DNA of 20,548 nucleotides from a virus (IMGVR_UViG_2872698443_000003); one strand, 5' to 3'; positions 3,019 through 20,548 are shown, numbered from the stretch's first letter. Made by a program: numbers and translations. The notes: generated by a model from the sequence alone, not told the origin.

Positions 3019-3577
3019 GGTTAACCTCCTGCGGCGGCTCTGGTAGCGGCATCCAGTGTGACGGCTCACATACCCCCTCAACACCATTCATGTAAAAGAA
3101 TTGAAATAACCCTTTACCTTTGTGAAACCCTACCATCTGCTCTTTTGTGTCTGAACAATAAACCAAAACATCTTCTTCGTTTGGCATTCGCTCACTACAG
3201 CTTATCCAACTATCCGGAGTTACCGGAGAGTTGCCCGATAGCTGGTTCAACTTGTAAGTTTGGCTTACAGGTTCGGCTTTCAGTTCTGCTATGCGCTTTT
3301 TTGCTGTTTCCAGCTCATCCAGCAGCGCCAAGACGGTAGCCGGATTGGCTGCGGCGATGAATTCAGCATTGGCCTGCTGTTCCATTTGGAAATCTTCATC
3401 GAAGCCGCTTTCAGGATGCGCTCCTTCAATTCTGCAAATGGGAAGATATCCAACAACGTCACGATGAATTAGCGCATCACCAGCATCAAGCCTCTCCTCT
3501 CCATATTCTAGCGACCACACACCACACGTTGCTTTCTCTGCCGCCTCACGCAGTGCCTGATAGTCAATCTTGCTCAC
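3011..3577 (-). CDS. Ead/Ea22-like N-terminus plus DUF551-like C-terminus, lambdoid early accessory protein, 188 aa
   Basis: Track ORF; N-terminus [24 protein letters not shown]... and C-terminal WISCSERMP...HWMPLPEPP resemble Ea22/DUF551 proteins (recalled family features). Confidence 0.6.
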   Translation of the reverse strand: MSKIDYQALREAAEKATCGVWSLEYGEERLDAGDALIHRDVVGYLPICRIEGAHPESGFDEDFQMEQQANAEFIAAANPATVLALLDELETAKKRIAELKAEPVSQTYKLNQLSGNSPVTPDSWISCSERMPNEEDVLVYCSDTKEQMVGFHKGKGLFQFFYMNGVEGVCEPSHWMPLPEPPQEVNRG

Positions 3578-7574: not shown

Positions 7575-7901
7575 TCAAATAAGTGGTTTGCTGCCTAATT
7601 TCATTTTCTGGCGACCAACACAAGTCACACCCATTTCACTGCGTGGCTTGCTGTACCATGTGCGCTGATTCTTGCGCTCAATACGTTGCAGGTTGCTTTC
7701 AATCTGTTCGTGGTATTCAGCCAGCACCGTAAGGTCTATCGGATTCAGTGCGCTTTCTACTCGTGATTTCGGTTTGCGATTCAGCGAGAGAATAGGGCGG
7801 TTAACTGGTTTTGCGCTTACCCCAACCAACAGGGGATTTGCTGCTTTCCATTGAGCCTGTTTCTCTGCGCGACGTTCGCGGCGGCGTGTTTGTGCATCCA
7901 T
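7575..7901 (-). CDS. N: Antitermination protein N (lambda-like), 108 aa from the internal ATG
   Basis: MDAQTRRRERRAEKQAQWKAANPLLVGVSAKPVNRPILSLNRKPKSRVESALNPIDLTVLAEYH... matches lambda N as recalled; the track ORF's 30 extra N-terminal codons are not part of N. Confidence 0.9.
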   Translation of the reverse strand: MDAQTRRRERRAEKQAQWKAANPLLVGVSAKPVNRPILSLNRKPKSRVESALNPIDLTVLAEYHEQIESNLQRIERKNQRTWYSKPRSEMGVTCVGRQKMKLGSKPLI

Positions 7902-8011
7902 CTGGATTCTCCTGTCAGTTAGCTTTGAGTAACGCGCCGTGATGCTTATCTCCACGGTTGCTGTCTTGCAGCTGCATTTCGCGCTACTCAAAGCCTTCTG
8001 CTTTGAATGCT

Positions 8012-8042
8012 GCCCTTCTTCAGGGCTTAATTTTTAAGAGCC
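8012..8042 (-). promoter_or_regulatory. nutL site: boxA (GCTCTTAAAAATTAA) and boxB hairpin (GCCCTGAAGAAGGGC)
   Basis: Minus-strand sequence GAGGCTCTTAAAAATTAAGCCCTGAAGAAGGGCAGC, near-identical to lambda nutL as recalled. Confidence 0.85.
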
Positions 8043-8082
8043 TCACCTTCAATGGTGGTTAGTGCGTCCTGCTGATGGCTAA

Positions 8083-8111
8083 ATAGTACGATTTGTACTT
8101 TATCGAGTCAA
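8083..8111 (-). promoter_or_regulatory. Candidate pL promoter (-35 TTGACT, 17-nt spacer, -10 TACTAT) with operator palindrome AGTAC-N5-GTACT at 8085-8099
   Basis: Read on the minus strand upstream of nutL; palindrome overlaps the spacer and -10. Confidence 0.5.
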
Positions 8112-8174
8112 TACAAAATGTTCTAAATATAATTGGTTTTTTATAACGCTTTGTATTTAATGGGTTTATATTTT

Positions 8175-8206
8175 GGAAAAAGAAAACCCGACACTAAGGT
8201 CGGGTT
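8175..8206 (-). terminator. Rho-independent terminator downstream of cI
   Basis: 8-bp stem AACCCGAC/GTCGGGTT with 6-nt loop, followed on the minus strand by TTCTTTTTCC. Confidence 0.6.
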
Positions 8207-8236
8207 ATTGTTGTGTGCTTTAGAGTGGTGAGGCTG

Positions 8237-8896
8237 TTAACTAAATGTCTCTTCAGGCCACTGGCTGGCGATAACTTTCCCTACAACGGAACAGCTATCA
8301 TTGCATGGGATCATTGGATATTGCGGGTTTAGTGGCTGTAGGAACACCTGACCGCTATCCCTGATCAGTTTCTTGAAGGTAAACTCGTCACCACCAAGTC
8401 TGGCTATGCAGAAATCACCTGGCTCAACAGCCTGCTCAGGGTCAACGAGAATTAACATCCCGTCAGGAAAGCTTGGCTTGGATCCTGTTGGCGCGGTCAT
8501 GGAATTACCTTCAACTTCAAGCCAGAACGCACAATCACTGGCTTTTTTGGTTGTGCTGACCCATCTCTCCGCATCACCTTTGGTAAAGGTTCTAAGCTCA
8601 GGCGAGAACATCCCGGCCTGAACATGAGAAAAAACAGGGTACTCATATTGTTTTTTAACGGGGGCAGATGAGTATTCGCCAACAGGTGAAAATGTACCGT
8701 CGTGGTTGAATGAGACGTTATCAATACCAAGGTATTTAAACACCACACCAATCTCGTCAAGAGATGGATGACGAGATCCGCGCAACCAGTGACCAATTCC
8801 ACCCTGCGTCATACCAAGCTCTTCAGCTAACTTCTCTTGAGTTATGCCGAGCTCTTTCATTCTGGATCTAGCCAGTTCATACCATTTCATTTTCAT
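8237..8896 (-). CDS. cI: CI-type prophage repressor: lambda-identical C-terminal dimerisation/autocleavage domain, divergent N-terminal HTH domain
   Basis: From ...[39 protein letters not shown] onward the protein matches lambda CI as recalled; N-terminus ([37 protein letters not shown]) does not. Start is ambiguous (ATG 8896, 8890 or 8932; possibly leaderless). Confidence 0.85.
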
Positions 8897-8952
8897 ACCC
8901 TTATTATTACGCTCTGTACTAAAACCATCCATGCACAAGATGTATTTTTTGT

Positions 8953-8981
8953 TTGCATTCTAAAAGTACATATCGTATTAT
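8953..8981 (+). promoter_or_regulatory. Candidate pR promoter (-35 TTGCAT, 17-nt spacer, -10 TATTAT) with operator half-palindrome AGTAC-N5-GTATT at 8965-8979
   Basis: In the 70-110 bp cI-cro divergent region; motif related to the pL-side palindrome. Confidence 0.45.
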
Positions 8982-9007
8982 TGTTTCATGGTTACTATGG
9001 AGGGCAT

Positions 9008-9223
9008 ATGAGCAACCTACGAAAATATCGAGAGTCACTGAATATCTCTCAAACAACACTTGCTAAGGCAGTTGGATGCACACAGGGAGCTATCGGACAT
9101 TGGGAATCTGGTCGTCGCTTCCCAGACCTTAAAACATGCCGTGCTCTTGTTGAGTGCCTAAACAAGTTAGGCGCAAAAGTCAGTCTTGATGACGTGTTCC
9201 CGCCGGAACACAAAGCCGCTTAA
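9008..9223 (+). CDS. cro: Cro-like HTH (XRE-type) repressor, 71 aa
   Basis: ATG 9008 with GGAGGG upstream; HTH ISQTTLAKAVGCTQGAIGHWESG; position between the operators and nutR. Track ORF 8837.. has a spurious N-terminal extension. Confidence 0.75.
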   Translation: MSNLRKYRESLNISQTTLAKAVGCTQGAIGHWESGRRFPDLKTCRALVECLNKLGAKVSLDDVFPPEHKAA

Positions 9224-9231
9224 GACATTCC

Positions 9232-9263
9232 CGCTCTTACACATCCCAGCCCTGAAAAAGGGC
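9232..9263 (+). promoter_or_regulatory. nutR site: boxA CGCTCTTA and boxB GCCCTGAAAAAGGGC
   Basis: CGCTCTTACACATCCCAGCCCTGAAAAAGGGC, near-identical to lambda nutR as recalled. Confidence 0.85.
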
Positions 9264-9342
9264 ATCAAATTAAACCACACCTATGGTGTATGCATTTATT
9301 TGCATACCTTCAATCAATTGTTATCTAAGGAAATACTTACAT

Positions 9343-9636
9343 ATGGTTCGTGCAAACAAACGCAACGAGGCTCTAAGAATCGAGAGTGCGTTGCTTAACA
9401 AAATCGCAATGCTTGGAACTGAGAAGACAGCGGAAGCTGTGGGAGTTGATAAGTCGCAGATCAGCAGGTGGAAGAGGGATTGGATTCCAAAGTTCTCAAT
9501 GCTGCTTGCTGTTCTTGAATGGGGCGTCGTCGACGACGATATGGCTCGATTGGCACGACAAGTTGCTTCGATTCTCACCAATAAAAAACGCCCGGAGGCA
9601 ACCGAGCGTTCTGAACAAATCCAGATGGAATTCTGA
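9343..9636 (+). CDS. cII: Transcriptional activator CII (lambda-like), 97 aa
   Basis: [75 protein letters not shown]... matches lambda CII as recalled; ATG at 9343. Confidence 0.9.
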
Positions 9637-9668
9637 GGTCATTACTGGATCAATCCACAGGAGTCATT

Positions 9669-9815
9669 ATGACAAAACAACTCAGTCCTTACCAGGACAA
9701 AATTCACAAACACATACTACGTGATCGCTTCCTGTCCAGCTTCAAGCAGCCTGGTCGATTCCGGGCTGAGTTGGAAAAAGTGAAGCTGATGCAGAAGGAG
9801 AAAGGTCATGAGTAA
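9669..9815 (+). CDS. Small hypothetical protein, 48 aa, between cII and the replication initiator
   Basis: Manual translation ([48 protein letters not shown]); AGGAG 6 nt upstream; overlaps the next start by 8 nt. Confidence 0.4.
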
Positions 9816-14212: not shown

Positions 14213-14381
14213 CCCATCCCAATCCCTTCAATACCAGAAAGAAAGCGTCGAGCGGGCTTTAACGTGCGCTAACTGCGGTCAGAAGCTGCATGTGCTGGAA
14301 GTTCATGTGTGTGAGCACTGCTGCGCAGAACTGATGAGCGATCCGAATAGCTCAATGTACGAGGAAGAAGACGATGAATGA
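14205..14381 (+). CDS. ninF: NinF, 58 aa, below the track cutoff
   Basis: Manual translation [58 protein letters not shown] matches lambda NinF as recalled. Confidence 0.8.
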
Positions 14382-15096
14382 GTTAATAAATGGCAATGCC
14401 ATCAAAATGACAAGCATTGAAATCGCTGAGTTGGTGGGTAAGCGTCATGACAATGTGAAACGTACCATCGAAACGCTGGCTAAAAATGGTGTTATCCGGC
14501 TTCCTCAAATTGAGGTTTCCGAAAGAATCAATAACTTAGGGTTCAATGTTCAGTACGAGCATTACGTCTTCGAGGGCGAACAAGGTAAGCGAGACAGTAT
14601 TGTCGTTGTTGCCCAGTTGTCGCCAGAGTTCACCGCTCGCCTTGTTGACCGTTGGCGAGAGCTTGAAGAAGCTGCGGTTAATATCCCCAAAACGCTACCG
14701 GAAGCGTTGCGCCTTGCTGCTGATCTTGCTGAGCAGAAAATGCAGCTGGAAAACCAGCTCGCAATTGCCGCACCTAAAGTTGAGTTTGCCGATCGCGTTG
14801 GCGAGGCCAGCGGAATTTTGATTGGAAACTTTGCAAAGGTTGTTGGAATTGGTCCAAACAAACTGTTTGCGTGGATGCGCGATCACAAAATCCTTATTGC
14901 TTCAGGTTCCCGGCGCAATGTGCCAATGCAGGAATATATGGATCGCGGCTATTTCGCAGTGAAAGAAACAGCGGTCAACACAAATCACGGAATACAGATA
15001 TCGTTCACCACAAAAATCACCGGGCGTGGTCAACAGTGGCTGACCAGAAAGCTGCTCGATAACGGAATGCTGAAAGTAACCGGGGAGGCTGCTTAA
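14374..15096 (+). CDS. Rha-family phage regulatory protein / antirepressor (Rha-like N-terminus, KilAC/Ant-like C-terminus), 240 aa
   Basis: Track ORF; N-terminal [30 protein letters not shown] is typical of Rha proteins; family assignment from recalled features. Confidence 0.6.
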   Translation: MNELINGNAIKMTSIEIAELVGKRHDNVKRTIETLAKNGVIRLPQIEVSERINNLGFNVQYEHYVFEGEQGKRDSIVVVAQLSPEFTARLVDRWRELEEAAVNIPKTLPEALRLAADLAEQKMQLENQLAIAAPKVEFADRVGEASGILIGNFAKVVGIGPNKLFAWMRDHKILIASGSRRNVPMQEYMDRGYFAVKETAVNTNHGIQISFTTKITGRGQQWLTRKLLDNGMLKVTGEAA

Positions 15097-15930: not shown

Positions 15931-16136
15931 GACTCGAAAGCGTAGCTAAATTTCACTCGCCAAAAAGCCCGATGATGAGCGACTCACCACGGGCCACGGC
16001 TTCTGACTCTCTTTCCGGTACTGATGTGATGGCTGCTATGGGGATGGCGCAATCACAAGCCGGATTCGGAATGGCTGCATTCTGCGGTAAGCATGAACTC
16101 AGCCAGAACGACAAACAAAAGGCTATCAACTATCTG
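15927..16136 (+). pseudogene. Q: Late antiterminator Q, N-terminal 70 codons only, interrupted by IS1
   Basis: MRLESVAKFHSPKSPMMSDSPRATASDSLSGTDVMAAMGMAQSQAGFGMAAFCGKHELSQNDKQKAINYL matches lambda Q residues 1-70 as recalled; the track ORF then reads into the IS1 end. Confidence 0.9.
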
Positions 16137-16191: not shown

Positions 16192-16467
16192 GTGGCTTCT
16201 GTTTCTATCAGCTGTCCCTCCTGTTCAGCTACTGACGGGGTGGTGCGTAACGGCAAAAGCACCGCCGGACATCAGCGCTATCTCTGCTCTCACTGCCGTA
16301 AAACATGGCAACTGCAGTTCACTTACACCGCTTCTCAACCCGGTACGCACCAGAAAATCATTGATATGGCCATGAATGGCGTTGGATGCCGGGCAACTGC
16401 CCGCATTATGGGCGTTGGCCTCAACACGATTTTACGTCACTTAAAAAACTCAGGCCGCAGTCGGTAA
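16192..16467 (+). CDS. insA: IS1 InsA, 91 aa
   Basis: [43 protein letters not shown]... recognised. Confidence 0.95.
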
Positions 16468-16889
16468 CCTCGCGCATACAGCCGGGCAGTGACGTCATCG
16501 TCTGCGCGGAAATGGACGAACAGTGGGGCTATGTCGGGGCTAAATCGCGCCAGCGCTGGCTGTTTTACGCGTATGACAGGCTCCGGAAGACGGTTGTTGC
16601 GCACGTATTCGGTGAACGCACGATGGCGACGCTGGGGCGTCTTATGAGCCTGCTGTCACCCTTTGACGTGGTGATATGGATGACGGATGGCTGGCCGCTG
16701 TATGAATCCCGCCTGAAGGGAAAGCTGCACGTAATCAGCAAGCGATATACGCAGCGAATTGAGCGGCATAACCTGAATCTGAGGCAGCACCTGGCACGGC
16801 TGGGACGGAAGTCGCTGTCGTTCTCAAAATCGGTGGAGCTGCATGACAAAGTCATCGGGCATTATCTGAACATAAAACACTATCAATAA
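16386..16889 (+). CDS. insB: IS1 InsB' transposase reading frame, 167 aa (expressed as InsAB' by -1 frameshift)
   Basis: Track ORF matches IS1 InsB as recalled. Confidence 0.95.
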
Positions 16890-16969: not shown

Positions 16970-17728
16970 GTGCTTGTAAAAACCAATACCAATAAAATTA
17001 GCTATGGTAACTCATATGAAAAAATTAATTTCCCGGGAGTTCAGATTCATGATTTTAACGCTATGGTTGAGACTTGGACATCATCTATATCAATAGATAA
17101 TCTTGTTATAAATGGTAGTGGTAGGTTATCTAGAATATCTAACTCATTTACATTTAATACGACATCATCGGATTCTCGCGTATTTGATTTTTGGCAGTAT
17201 ACATCTGATGGAGCTGCTGTTTGTAATATTTACAGAAATGAAATTAGCTCAGATTCTCAGTTTCATCATGATGGTACAACTATAGGAGTGGTGATACCAA
17301 TAGCAAATACCGATAATAAGACACTGCGAGTTGTTATTGATAAAAATGTTTTTAAATGTCAAGGGAAAGAAGTCACATTATCTTTCATGGCTGTAAATGG
17401 GTTGCCATCTGTTCAAACTAAAATTTCCGTGAACTTGATATTGAGCTATTCTTCATCATTAGGCGTTCAAAGAGTATATTCATTCGGTGAGTTTGATATT
17501 GGTAGTTCATGGGGGTTGAAAAAATTCACATTAGCAATACCTTTTGAAGGTCTTGTGTCCGCAAGCGATGCGAATGCTTATTTATCCTTTTCGCTTCCAA
17601 AATCACAAGAAGTAAACATCATCATAGCCAATGTTAATTTATGCAAAGGAAATGTTGCTGTGCAGGGGCCGAGTGATTTAAAGGATTGGGATTTACTATC
17701 TAGATCAATTGCATACTACGGTAGTTAA
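16970..17728 (+). CDS. Low-GC Ser/Thr/Asn-rich hypothetical protein, 252 aa; possibly the C-terminal receptor-binding part of a tail fibre or another surface-interaction protein, probably 5'-truncated
   Basis: Track ORF with GTG start; the frame is open upstream into the IS1 right end (no stop from 16772 by my reading); composition resembles fibre distal domains. Function not recognised. Confidence 0.4.
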   Translation: MLVKTNTNKISYGNSYEKINFPGVQIHDFNAMVETWTSSISIDNLVINGSGRLSRISNSFTFNTTSSDSRVFDFWQYTSDGAAVCNIYRNEISSDSQFHHDGTTIGVVIPIANTDNKTLRVVIDKNVFKCQGKEVTLSFMAVNGLPSVQTKISVNLILSYSSSLGVQRVYSFGEFDIGSSWGLKKFTLAIPFEGLVSASDANAYLSFSLPKSQEVNIIIANVNLCKGNVAVQGPSDLKDWDLLSRSIAYYGS

Positions 17729-17765: not shown

Positions 17766-19109
17766 TCATCTAACTTCTACTTTATATCGAACTCCGCGTC
17801 CAAGTAAGATAGAAATGAAAGATGACAAAATCATCAAGGCAATTAAGAACACGATGCTATCAAACATGTATGCCAAGCCTATAGGGGGAGACAGCATTAT
17901 TGCCAATGCCCTGCAATAGAAAGATGCTATGAAAGAAGAGTAGAATATATCGCTTCTTAATCTAATGTTTTTTGCTTTACATACACGACCAAGTATCCAG
18001 CCAAAAAATGCAGTCATGAATAAACCGCCGACAAAGCCAAAGTAAACATAACCAGCAAGATCAAAGTGACTTGTTGGCCCCCTTGCTACATCATCCCCAA
18101 GATACCATACCTTCCAAATCATTCTGCCAACATCATTGGCTGAGTAGTCATATCCAAGCATGTTTTGCATTATCCCATTCCCGGCTATATATCCGAATAG
18201 TTGTAGAAATGCATTTTTTACTTGCAACATGTCAATAACTGCATTTGGGAGTGAGAAGTAGTATGCGTCTCCATTTGCAAATATCCGCATGAATAACATT
18301 TCAACAACAACAGGGGCGTCCATGTAGTTTGATTTTGTATACCCTATTGCTGCTGAATTATATGATATTAGGAATAGCACATAAGCAACAAGAGATACGG
18401 ATATAATTAAAAAAACAACCGCACTTTTTATCGTTAGCCTTGGTTTACGACCTGTAAAAATATAAATTGCAATTATAGCAACTAGCAAATGCTCTAGGAG
18501 AGAAAGTTTTGCGCCTGAAACAAAAGACGCAATTATAGATATAATTATAGCTATAAGTGCTATTGATGCTCTTTTCAACCCTCTGGACTTTACTGCCATG
18601 ACAGAAAGATATCCAGTGAGCATCAGTCTTACAACATCAAGTATCCTTACGATAGCACCAAGACCTCTGTTTGCCTCAAACCTAGACTGTACAAAGGCAT
18701 CAAAAGATATACTTTTTATATATATTACCGTTAGTGATATATAAAATATTAGCAACAAATAGAATATTATTGATGAGTTTTTTTTGCATGTATTAAATAC
18801 CTTGTCAGTTGTTCCAAGTAGTCTAAATTTAGGTGTTCTATATGCCAAGTGCATAAACGAAGCCAATACAATCCAGTTTAGAATAATCATGTAGAACAAG
18901 TGATCAGGAATGTAGTTGTAATTCCATAGCATTAATACTATTGCGTAAGAAGTTCCAAATGTGAAGGTAAAATAGAAGTGTATTGGATCTATCACTCCTA
19001 CTGCCAGCTTCCTTACCGTCATGTAACATAAAACAGTTGTTACTGTAGCGTACAGTAAATACTCTGACCAATTTGAAAATATAAAATAAAAAAAGTCTAT
19101 ATCACTCAT
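17766..19109 (-). CDS. Polytopic inner-membrane protein, 447 aa, about 30% GC, Wzy/O-antigen-polymerase-like or GtrS-like; candidate lysogenic-conversion gene
   Basis: Hydrophobic segments throughout the track ORF; very low GC versus about 50% in the rest of the prophage; sits in the int-proximal slot where P22/KplE1-type phages carry O-antigen modification genes. Confidence 0.55.
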   Translation of the reverse strand: MSDIDFFYFIFSNWSEYLLYATVTTVLCYMTVRKLAVGVIDPIHFYFTFTFGTSYAIVLMLWNYNYIPDHLFYMIILNWIVLASFMHLAYRTPKFRLLGTTDKVFNTCKKNSSIIFYLLLIFYISLTVIYIKSISFDAFVQSRFEANRGLGAIVRILDVVRLMLTGYLSVMAVKSRGLKRASIALIAIIISIIASFVSGAKLSLLEHLLVAIIAIYIFTGRKPRLTIKSAVVFLIISVSLVAYVLFLISYNSAAIGYTKSNYMDAPVVVEMLFMRIFANGDAYYFSLPNAVIDMLQVKNAFLQLFGYIAGNGIMQNMLGYDYSANDVGRMIWKVWYLGDDVARGPTSHFDLAGYVYFGFVGGLFMTAFFGWILGRVCKAKNIRLRSDIFYSSFIASFYCRALAIMLSPPIGLAYMFDSIVFLIALMILSSFISILLGRGVRYKVEVR

Positions 19110-19390: not shown

Positions 19391-20548
19391 TCACTCAGGC
19401 TTTTCATCAAGCCAGTCCGCCCACCACTGCATCATTTCTCTGCGCTTATCGAGATACTGCGCATGGTTGTAAATACCGCGCACAGATCCGCCGTTGGCAT
19501 GTGCCAGTTGCATTTCAATAGCATCAGCAGGCCATTCGTTCTCGTTCATAATCGTGCTGAATTCATGCCTGAATCCGTGACCGCTTTCCAGACCCTCATA
19601 GCCGATTTGTTTGATCACAAGCAATACCGCGTTCTCGCAGATTGGCTTCTTCTTATCGTTGCGCCCGGCAAAAACAAACTCTGAGACTGGTTTGGTGATT
19701 GAGCTTAGCGTAGTGAGAAGTTCAACCACCTGGTCTGACATCGGGACCACATGAATTTTGCGTCCCTTCATCACACTGGCGTCGATGGTGATAATCCTGT
19801 TTTCAAAATCGACGTTCTTCCATAGCATGGAACGAAGTTCTTTTGTTCTGAGGGCTGTGTAGCGTAAAACTTTGGTTGCAATGAGCGATACGATACTTCC
19901 TGAAAATGTTGCCAGTGCTTTGTTGAATGCCGGGATCTGGTCTGCAGGAAGAAACGGGAAGTTCTTCTTGCGGTATCCCTTCATGGCGTCAGCAAGGTCA
20001 GGTGCCGGGTTATATTTAGCCCTGCCGGTGACAATAGCGTAACGGAAAACCTCGCCGCATCTTCTGCGGGCTTTATTTGCTCGCTCCATTGCACCGCGAT
20101 CTTCAAATCTGCGGATTACTTCCAGCAGTTGCATCGGCTCAATATCCTGAATTTCAAGGCCGCCGATGATAGGTAAAATGTCGTCATCAAACATTTTTGC
20201 AAGTTCATTTGCATAGCCTACTGACCAGACTTGCTTCTTGTGCTCGTACCATTCCTTGTAAATCGCACTAAATGAATTGTTGTTAGACGAAGCCTTTTTC
20301 GCCTTTACCGGATCGATGCCAACCGAGATGTCTTTCCTCGCAGTCCATGCCTTATCCCTTGCTTCCTGCAAAGTCATAAGCGGATATTTTCCGACGGTCA
20401 GGATTTTCTCCTTACCGTCAATCTTGTAGCGAAGCTGCCATACCTTTTTCCCGGATACAGGAACATAAAGGTACAGGCCATTACCATCGAGAAGGCGGTA
20501 TGGTTTTTCTTTCGGCTTTGCTGCTTCAATCTGCTTAACGGTGAGCAT
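19391..20548 (-). CDS. intS: P4-family tyrosine integrase (IntS-type, argW-specific), 385 aa; start codon is the last three bases of the window
   Basis: MLTVKQIEAAKPKEKPYRLLDGNGLYLYVPVSGKKVWQLRYKIDGKEKILTVGKYPLMTLQEARDKAW... matches K-12 IntS as recalled; catalytic R..HxxR..Y region present. Confidence 0.9.
   Translation of the reverse strand: MLTVKQIEAAKPKEKPYRLLDGNGLYLYVPVSGKKVWQLRYKIDGKEKILTVGKYPLMTLQEARDKAWTARKDISVGIDPVKAKKASSNNNSFSAIYKEWYEHKKQVWSVGYANELAKMFDDDILPIIGGLEIQDIEPMQLLEVIRRFEDRGAMERANKARRRCGEVFRYAIVTGRAKYNPAPDLADAMKGYRKKNFPFLPADQIPAFNKALATFSGSIVSLIATKVLRYTALRTKELRSMLWKNVDFENRIITIDASVMKGRKIHVVPMSDQVVELLTTLSSITKPVSEFVFAGRNDKKKPICENAVLLVIKQIGYEGLESGHGFRHEFSTIMNENEWPADAIEMQLAHANGGSVRGIYNHAQYLDKRREMMQWWADWLDEKPE

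Follow-up and report, generated by a model that had tools for sequence, protein, structure and literature searches.

How did a repressor that is almost entirely lambda CI in its C-terminal part come to carry an unrelated DNA-binding domain, and what immunity does it specify? The question is raised by the cI gene, on the minus strand near position 8237, of IMGVR_UViG_2872698443_000003, a 20,548-nucleotide stretch of viral DNA (hereafter the window) that includes the immunity region of a defective lambdoid prophage of Escherichia coli. A sequence-only reading of this stretch had described a mosaic immunity region in which specificity was swapped inside cI, with the implication that the combination was new. 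Our analysis points with high confidence to a more familiar answer: this defective lambdoid E. coli prophage carries an immunity module of the already described VT2-Sakai/Nil2/Stx2-II type, and the CI of the module is a two-part mosaic built through a recurrent joint in the linker between domains.

A repressor gene in two parts

The gene ends in a stop codon at 8237–8239 and begins at an ATG at either 8896 (219 residues, MKMKWYEL...) or 8890 (217 residues, MKW...). The second ATG is the start used in the Nil2 record, and a Shine-Dalgarno sequence (AAGGG, 8898–8902) lies 7 nucleotides ahead of it. Longer open reading frames (ORFs), from a TTG at 8938 or from the RefSeq start at 8932, are probably over-extended, because both enter the operator region. 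The span 8237–9007 first assigned to the repressor corresponds to cI plus the right operator region (OR), the gene itself ending at 8896 or 8890.

Pfam searches and phage comparisons assign the 5′ part of the gene (8648–8896, minus strand, residues 1–83) to a VT2-Sakai-type HTH_3 DNA-binding head with a short linker (HTH_3 at residues 11–58, E 8.3e-11). The 3′ part (8237–8647, minus strand, residues 84–219) is, by Pfam and by alignment with lambda, a lambda-type module comprising linker, cleavage site and S24 protease/oligomerisation region (Peptidase_S24 at residues 87–209, E 8.9e-29). This tail aligns without gaps to lambda CI Tyr101–Gly236 and is identical at 133 of 136 positions, the three substitutions being S139C, E217D, and G236S; the earlier estimate of about 130 C-terminal residues nearly matching lambda CI was therefore sound. 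In the same alignment Ala94-Gly95, Ser132, and Lys175 fall opposite lambda Ala111-Gly112, Ser149, and Lys192, giving the features of LexA/S24-type phage CI proteins: a helix-turn-helix (HTH) head and a C-terminal S24 domain with an Ala-Gly site and a Ser/Lys pair. Lambda CI structures matching the tail include PDB entries 3bdn, 8gmu, and 2ho0, and the 98% identity to lambda 101–236 suggests that this CI would undergo RecA-stimulated self-cleavage. The head differs from lambda's, as had also been proposed: residues 1–83 share 19% identity with it in a global alignment (run with the identical protein P0001), and the best local match (tblastn) is confined to 29 residues of the helix-turn-helix.

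At the nucleotide level the change is abrupt. Positions 8243–8647 are 94.3% identical to lambda 37233–37637, and this identity begins within one codon at 8647 (TAT-GAG-TAC-CCT, Tyr84) and ends 6 nucleotides before the cI stop; the head has no detectable nucleotide homology to lambda, the approximately 43% identity of a forced alignment being noise. Of the differences in the shared block, 22 are synonymous and 3 non-synonymous (synonymous divergence, dS, 0.31; non-synonymous divergence, dN, 0.009; dN/dS 0.03). The low dS of the tail, together with the step change at one codon, indicates a recombination joint inside cI rather than gradual divergence. The opposite account, in which no recombination took place and the head diverged quickly under immunity selection while the tail was held constant, can scarcely be credited. 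It draws on the very low dN/dS of the tail and on the observation that heads are generally less conserved than tails across the family; however, a tail dS of only 0.31 stands beside a head without detectable nucleotide homology, with the switch inside a single codon, and OR, cro, and the left operator region (OL) are unalignable with lambda, yet nutL and nutR are 97% identical.

In lambda CI the DNA-binding domain comprises residues 1–92 and the C-terminal domain residues 132–236. The junction in the window lies in the linker between them and coincides with the N-terminus of the solved lambda fragments 101–229 and 101–236 (2ho0, 2hnf, 8gmu). Judged from these alignments, it is at a standard module boundary, with the DNA-binding domain on one side and the cleavage-site/protease module on the other.

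A known immunity type

The same cI architecture and the same junction occur in VT2-Sakai, Nil2, the Morioka Stx1-converting phage, Stx2 phage II, 1717, and 2851 (NC_000902, AJ413274, AP005153, AP005154), and the immunity type also includes the PA-series Stx2a phages. The head of the window repressor is 96.4% identical in amino acids to those of the Stx1 phage and Nil2 and 95.2% identical to that of VT2-Sakai, in each case above the 92% taken as the lower limit for predicting shared specificity (PMC2629481). Against this group the tail is 97.8% identical in amino acids, and Cro is 98.6% identical over all 71 residues; across cI, OR, and cro the window is 93% identical in nucleotides to VT2-Sakai-type phages, and across OL 79%. 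By the refuting condition that the sequence-only reading itself set out, the implied novelty of the hybrid does not survive: head, Cro, and operators are all of the known VT2-Sakai type, and the junction is at a standard boundary.

The literature is in keeping with this. In its summary of Fattah et al. (2000), PMC10742460 describes VT2-Sakai CI as highly homologous to lambda CI at the C-terminus and as showing low homology at the N-terminus; a lambda-like C-terminus with a divergent N-terminus is described in PMC2629481; and PMC8951638 gives 61% as the overall identity of Clade I Stx-phage CI with lambda CI, a value that would fit the head and tail pattern seen here. GenBank and published work thus already cover this type of repressor, with its lambda-like C-terminus and putative operators, and record it in Stx phages.

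Outside the shared module the Stx phages differ from the window: they carry an HK97-like N and HK022-like cII and O, whereas N, nutL, nutR, and cII of the window are of lambda type, and their OL and cI are separated by extra ORFs amounting to about 1.2 kb, where the window has a terminator only. In the VT2-Sakai reference genome (NC_000902, L005) an in-frame stop at approximately 3440–3470 interrupts the HTH of cI (GMT-stop-GG, against GMTQGG in the window), and because of this stop its cI is annotated as two fragments.

Closer relatives are found among phages Dewey, Louie, vB_EcoP-720R6, vB_EcoP-683R2, and phi458, which are 98–99% identical in nucleotides to window 7950–9300. Dewey and Louie are P22-like Lederbergvirus (PMC12243541). 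The CI and Cro proteins of Dewey are 100% identical to those of the window, and Dewey also carries a lambda-type N and cII; phages of the Dewey group are viable and have different replication genes, while the window is a prophage disrupted by insertion sequences (IS).

Lambda itself shares with the window the Tyr101–Gly236 module (98% identity, covering the cleavage site, Ser149/Lys192, and the cooperativity surface) and the layout of the switch, with three operators per side, divergent pRM and pR, CII acting at pRE, and N with its nut sites. It differs in its head, its operators, the fold family of its Cro, and its possession of rexA and rexB; with head, 17-bp operators, and Cro all different, the window is not of the imm-lambda type. 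Neither head nor Cro returned a tblastn hit in the HK022 or P22 genomes (E > 0.1), the tail of P22 is only 47% identical to that of the window, and the 434 and P22 repressor heads in PDB were not significantly similar (E 0.27–0.44). The suggested check against classical immunity proteins, covering head and Cro for HK022 and P22 and the head for 434, therefore gave no match (phage 21 was not compared).

More remote members of the same head family, joined to a lambda-family protease tail, occur in the Salmonella phages epsilon34, g341c, and SPN9CC (head identity approximately 55%) and in phage L (54%), values too low for shared specificity under the 92% rule of PMC2629481. The operator proposed for epsilon34 in that paper, WTACRAWWTGTAT, has a TAC-N5-GTA core in common with the window operators; as a pattern it matches only OR1 of the window, with 1 mismatch. 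On these comparisons the window is expected to be heteroimmune to lambda at the level of DNA binding, and is predicted to be homoimmune with VT2-Sakai, Nil2, phi458, Dewey, and Louie.

Frequency and age of the fusion

The part of the module that is not from lambda (8640–9230) was found at 816 places in 786 of the 5426 complete E. coli genomes, or about one in seven, including CFT073, Nissle 1917, E2348/69, and many O157:H7 strains. In the full set of complete genomes, lambda's own head, OR, and cro occur at 636 places (620 genomes) and the lambda-type tail at 1428 places (1207 genomes, the maximum in any one being three). In E. coli, then, nearly all lambda-type tails are joined to one of two heads, and the VT2-Sakai-type head outnumbers lambda's own as their partner, 816 places to 636. 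The totals, taken together rather than genome by genome, imply that approximately 175–200 genomes carry both head types, where independence would give about 90; the excess may reflect clonal sampling, such as that of O157:H7.

These counts bear on whether the element in the window itself took up a lambda tail or a foreign head in the recent past and so founded a new immunity type. A sharp breakpoint in cI, with lambda-like N, nutL, nutR, and cII in the same window, is what such an event would leave, but the event is highly improbable given that more than 60 phage records have the identical cI joint, as do the 816 places in E. coli. The tails of the window, lambda, and the Stx1 phage are mutually 92.0–93.7% identical in nucleotides, and the heads of the window and the Stx1 phage 95.1%. 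By this measure the tail of lambda is no more similar to that of the window than to that of the Stx phage, and the fusion therefore did not arise in this window; either it is old or the tails keep recombining. In distant relatives, moreover, head (79–90%) and tail (79–85%) have diverged jointly. Of the earlier proposal, the mosaic structure stands on the step change at the joint, whereas a recent exchange of specificity in this phage does not. On the direction of exchange, with lambda as donor or as recipient, the tails of distant relatives carry no information, being approximately 80–86% identical to both.

The wider family supports a linker joint that has been used repeatedly. In a search over 5.8 billion proteins, lambda-type tails (at least 80% amino acid identity) were found on at least five head classes, and the VT2-Sakai-type head (at least 80%) also on tails that are only 58–64% identical (P0028, P0029). 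All head classes meet at the motif (Q/E)(Y/F)(E/D)YP(V/L)F, which precedes the Ala-Gly cleavage site by 10 residues; on this sequence evidence, the linker motif is a recurrent recombination joint common to at least five head classes. In a further E. coli protein, P0106, the head is a third, unrelated one, and the tail is identical to lambda's in its second half but differs in the cleavage-site region, a pattern that implies an additional recombination joint inside the tail. VT2-Sakai-type immunity governs the induction of many Stx2 prophages.

Operators and promoters

Pattern searches recovered AGTACGATTTGTACT at 8085–8099 and AGTACATATCGTATT at 8965–8979, confirming both of the AGTAC-type palindromes that had been proposed at pL and pR in place of lambda operators. 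In the OL and OR regions no operator consensus of lambda, 434, or P22 was found: the lambda 17-bp operator (TATCACCGCCAGTGGTA-like) was missing at up to 4 mismatches to the 17-mer and at up to 2 to the half-site pattern, and the 434 and P22 patterns did not occur beyond chance. With zero mismatches, the only occurrences of AKTAC-N5-GTAYT anywhere in the 20.5 kb of the window are the three at OL1, OR3, and OR1. AGTAC-N5-GTACT with up to 2 mismatches gave 10 matches against 4.5 ± 1.7 in shuffled sequence, no shuffle reaching 10. In OL/OR an inverted-repeat finder returned nothing beyond a T-rich repeat and the OL1/OL2 pair, missing the short operators; the operators were defined instead by pattern searches and a comparative footprint. 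The latter set the cI–cro spacer of the window beside those of five relatives, namely the Stx1 phage, VT2-Sakai, and three metagenomic sequences with repressors 82–84% identical; the OL comparison comprised five sequences.

Three putative sites lie on each side. OL1 (8085–8099, AGTAC-GATTT-GTACT) has perfectly palindromic half-sites that are kept in four relatives with different central 5 bp, and OL2 (8110–8124, AATAC-AAAAT-GTTCT), with 2 mismatches, has the same half-sites in four relatives. The candidate OL3 (8143–8157, ATAAC-GCTTT-GTATT) is the weakest match; apart from the window, only the Stx1 phage showed it, and it was not detected in three more distant relatives. On the right, OR3 (8906–8920, ATTAC-GCTCT-GTACT) is kept among the relatives as ATTAC-N5-GTAYT and OR1 (8965–8979, AGTAC-ATATC-GTATT) as AGTAC-N5-GTATT. 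OR2 (8932–8946, TGCAC-AAGAT-GTATT) has a weak left half-site that is nevertheless invariant across all relatives, whereas its central bases vary (AAGAT, AATGT, AGTTT, ACGAT, AGGTT). In the spacer alignment generally, OR half-sites are invariant or nearly so, and it is the central 5 bp and the spacers that vary.

The GenBank entry AP005153 likewise annotates six 'putative operators', which match the six sites of the window. For five of the six, half-sites are the same in the window, the Stx1 phage, and VT2-Sakai, as is their order at OL and OR; the left half-site of OL3 differs by one base (ATAAC in the window, against ACAAC), and the remaining differences fall in the central 5 bp and the spacers.

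The predicted promoters are arranged around these sites. For pL (8083–8111, minus strand), a consensus scan gave a −35 element TTGACT at 8106–8111 and a −10 element TACTAT at 8083–8088 with a 17-nucleotide spacer (9/12), overlapped by OL1 and OL2. For pR (8953–8981, plus strand), the elements are TTGCAT at 8953–8958 and TATTAT at 8976–8981, likewise with a 17-nucleotide spacer, the scan itself having given the neighboring register TTTGCA with a spacer of 18; OR1 overlaps the spacer and −10 element of predicted pR, and OR2 does not overlap its −35 element. The position of pRM (8903–8931, minus strand; −10 AATAAT at 8903–8908, −35 TGGATG at 8926–8931) is predicted from geometry, with a −35 block that is the same as that annotated in AP005153, is kept among relatives, and is shared with VT2-Sakai-type phages. 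The ATG at 8896 is 42–43 bp away from the center of OR2, a distance shared with lambda. In lambda, the pRM mRNA begins at the cI AUG; by analogy, the weak pRM of the window may abut OR2 and yield a leaderless mRNA.

The spacing of the sites departs from lambda's. OR1 and OR2 are 33 bp apart center to center (32 bp in VT2-Sakai-type phages, 32–34 bp among the relatives), against 24 bp in lambda. The OR3–OR2 spacing is a constant 26 bp and the OL1–OL2 spacing 25–26 bp, where lambda has 23 bp for its second spacing, and OL and OR are about 0.9 kb apart in the window against 2.4 kb in lambda.

Cro and the lambda-like flanks

The cro gene (9008–9223, plus strand) encodes 71 residues of HTH_3 type (Pfam, E 1.4e-12) and does not belong to the lambda Cro family; the product gave no tblastn match to lambda cro. 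It is 35% identical to the cI head (E 5e-13), and the two recognition helices are nearly equal (TQGAIGHW in Cro, TQGGIGHW in the cI head), which fits competition at the same sites. Residues 1–69 of Cro match PDB 28tn_A ('lambda repressor-like protein', 82 residues; E 2.4e-16), which means that the structure of a fairly close Cro homolog has been solved.

DNA homology between the window and lambda is confined to four blocks: N, nutL, the 3′ part of cI, and nutR to cII. The first, second, and fourth, at 93.9–96.9% identity, bear out the description of N, nutL, nutR, and cII as lambda-like. The N antiterminator gene (7575–7901, minus strand) is identified by Pfam (N36, E 1.5e-26) and by the RefSeq annotation of an identical prophage, and window 7600–7927 is 93.9% identical to lambda. 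The nutL block (7989–8077, minus strand), recognized by homology to lambda, is 96.6% identical to lambda 35496–35583. It reaches to 8 bp from lambda OL1, and the immunity substitution has its left boundary at the right edge of this block. The block contains the boxB hairpin (8012–8026) and boxA (8034–8042), the latter reading GGCTCTTAA on the transcribed strand against CGCTCTTAA in lambda, a C-to-G change at 8042; boxB of nutL and both boxA and boxB of nutR are identical to lambda's.

The right-hand block (9230–9676, plus strand) is 96.9% identical to lambda 38247–38693. It begins right after the cro stop, its left edge forming the right boundary of the immunity substitution, and ends just past the cII stop, where the next gene begins, taking in nutR boxA (9232–9239), nutR boxB (9249–9263), and cII (9343–9636; Pfam Phage_CII, E 2.5e-48). 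A motif search placed the CII-binding sequence of pRE, TTGC-N6-TTGC, at 9352–9365 on the minus strand. Between 8078 and 8242 no lambda homology was found; lambda's rexA and rexB are absent, and in their place, directly 3′ of cI, is a putative intrinsic terminator hairpin (8185–8206, minus strand; 8-bp stem, 5 GC pairs, T-run).

A model of the switch and the evidence against it

Taken as a working module, the region would operate as follows. The HTH_3 head would recognize A(G/T)TAC-N5-GTA(C/T)T operators, of which pL has three and pR/pRM another three, so that CI dimers at OR1 and at OL1 and OL2 would shut pR and pL, while CI at OR2 would adjoin the pRM −35 element and probably stimulate that promoter. 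The acidic residues E21 and E25 of the head align with E34 and D38, the positive-control residues of lambda CI. OR3 would provide negative autoregulation of cI. The lambda-type tail would supply the dimer and tetramer contacts and the capacity for self-cleavage, and since this module is 98% identical to lambda's, cleavage would presumably be triggered by activated RecA as in lambda CI. Cro, with almost the same recognition helix, would compete at the same operators; establishment would proceed via lambda-type CII and pRE, and antitermination via lambda-type N with nutL and nutR. The mosaic CI itself would have been formed by recombination in the linker, at the joint that recurs in the family rather than through an event peculiar to this prophage.

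Several points weigh against so complete a picture. The prophage is defective, with Q truncated by IS1 and an IS3-family element at the left end, and expression of cI is no more than likely. The operator calls rest on symmetry, position, conservation, and a 'putative' GenBank annotation, and two of the sites, OR2 and OL3, are poor matches with 3 mismatches each. With OR1 and OR2 as far apart as they are, lambda-style pairwise cooperativity between them cannot simply be assumed despite the shared tail. Finally, cross-immunity between VT2-Sakai and lambda was claimed by Fattah et al., as relayed second-hand in PMC10742460; if true, it complicates the term 'heteroimmune'.

The first of these points admits a bleaker interpretation, that cI is an inactive relic with an intact frame in a decayed prophage where nothing is repressed. 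The truncation of Q, the IS3 element and LysR fragment at the left end, and the displaced integrase are all in keeping with decay, but we regard this as unlikely. The prophage has kept cI, cro, N, cII, its replication genes, pL, pR, and all six operators intact; its cI, cro, and OR are within approximately 1% or less of those of the viable phages Dewey and vB_EcoP-720R6; and unrepressed transcription from pL and pR (kil, replication) would be harmful, which favors continued repression.

The near-identity of tails between the lambda and VT2-Sakai-type repressors, two heteroimmune types that appear to co-reside in approximately 175–200 genomes, also raises the prospect that repressors of co-resident prophages form mixed dimers or tetramers and so couple their switches, with partial cross-immunity, negative dominance, or co-induction as the outcome. 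We put this forward tentatively and consider it doubtful; were it so, mixed oligomers could explain the cross-immunity that PMC10742460 attributes, at second hand, to Fattah et al. Both the 33-bp layout of OR1 and OR2 and the possible cross-talk between tails are reasonable if modest subjects for experiment.

The surrounding prophage

The chromosomes of E. coli TUM9754 and S163-2 match the window with 100% identity from position 1 up to 16904 only. The left end is occupied by an IS3-family transposase gene (1–1229) and a LysR gene fragment (1220–1744). On the right, the antiterminator gene Q is cut at 16136 by IS1 (16192–16889); beyond IS1 are two ORFs without a Pfam match (16970–17728, plus strand, and 17766–19109, minus strand) and, displaced to its right, a tyrosine integrase gene (19391–20548, minus strand). 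Searched in full against Rfam at gathering thresholds, the window matched no family, and a tRNA scan found no tRNA in it. In the nin region of the same prophage, a gene at 14374–15096 encodes a KilAC-domain antirepressor, which could offer a RecA-independent means of inactivating a repressor, either the prophage's own or that of a co-resident prophage.

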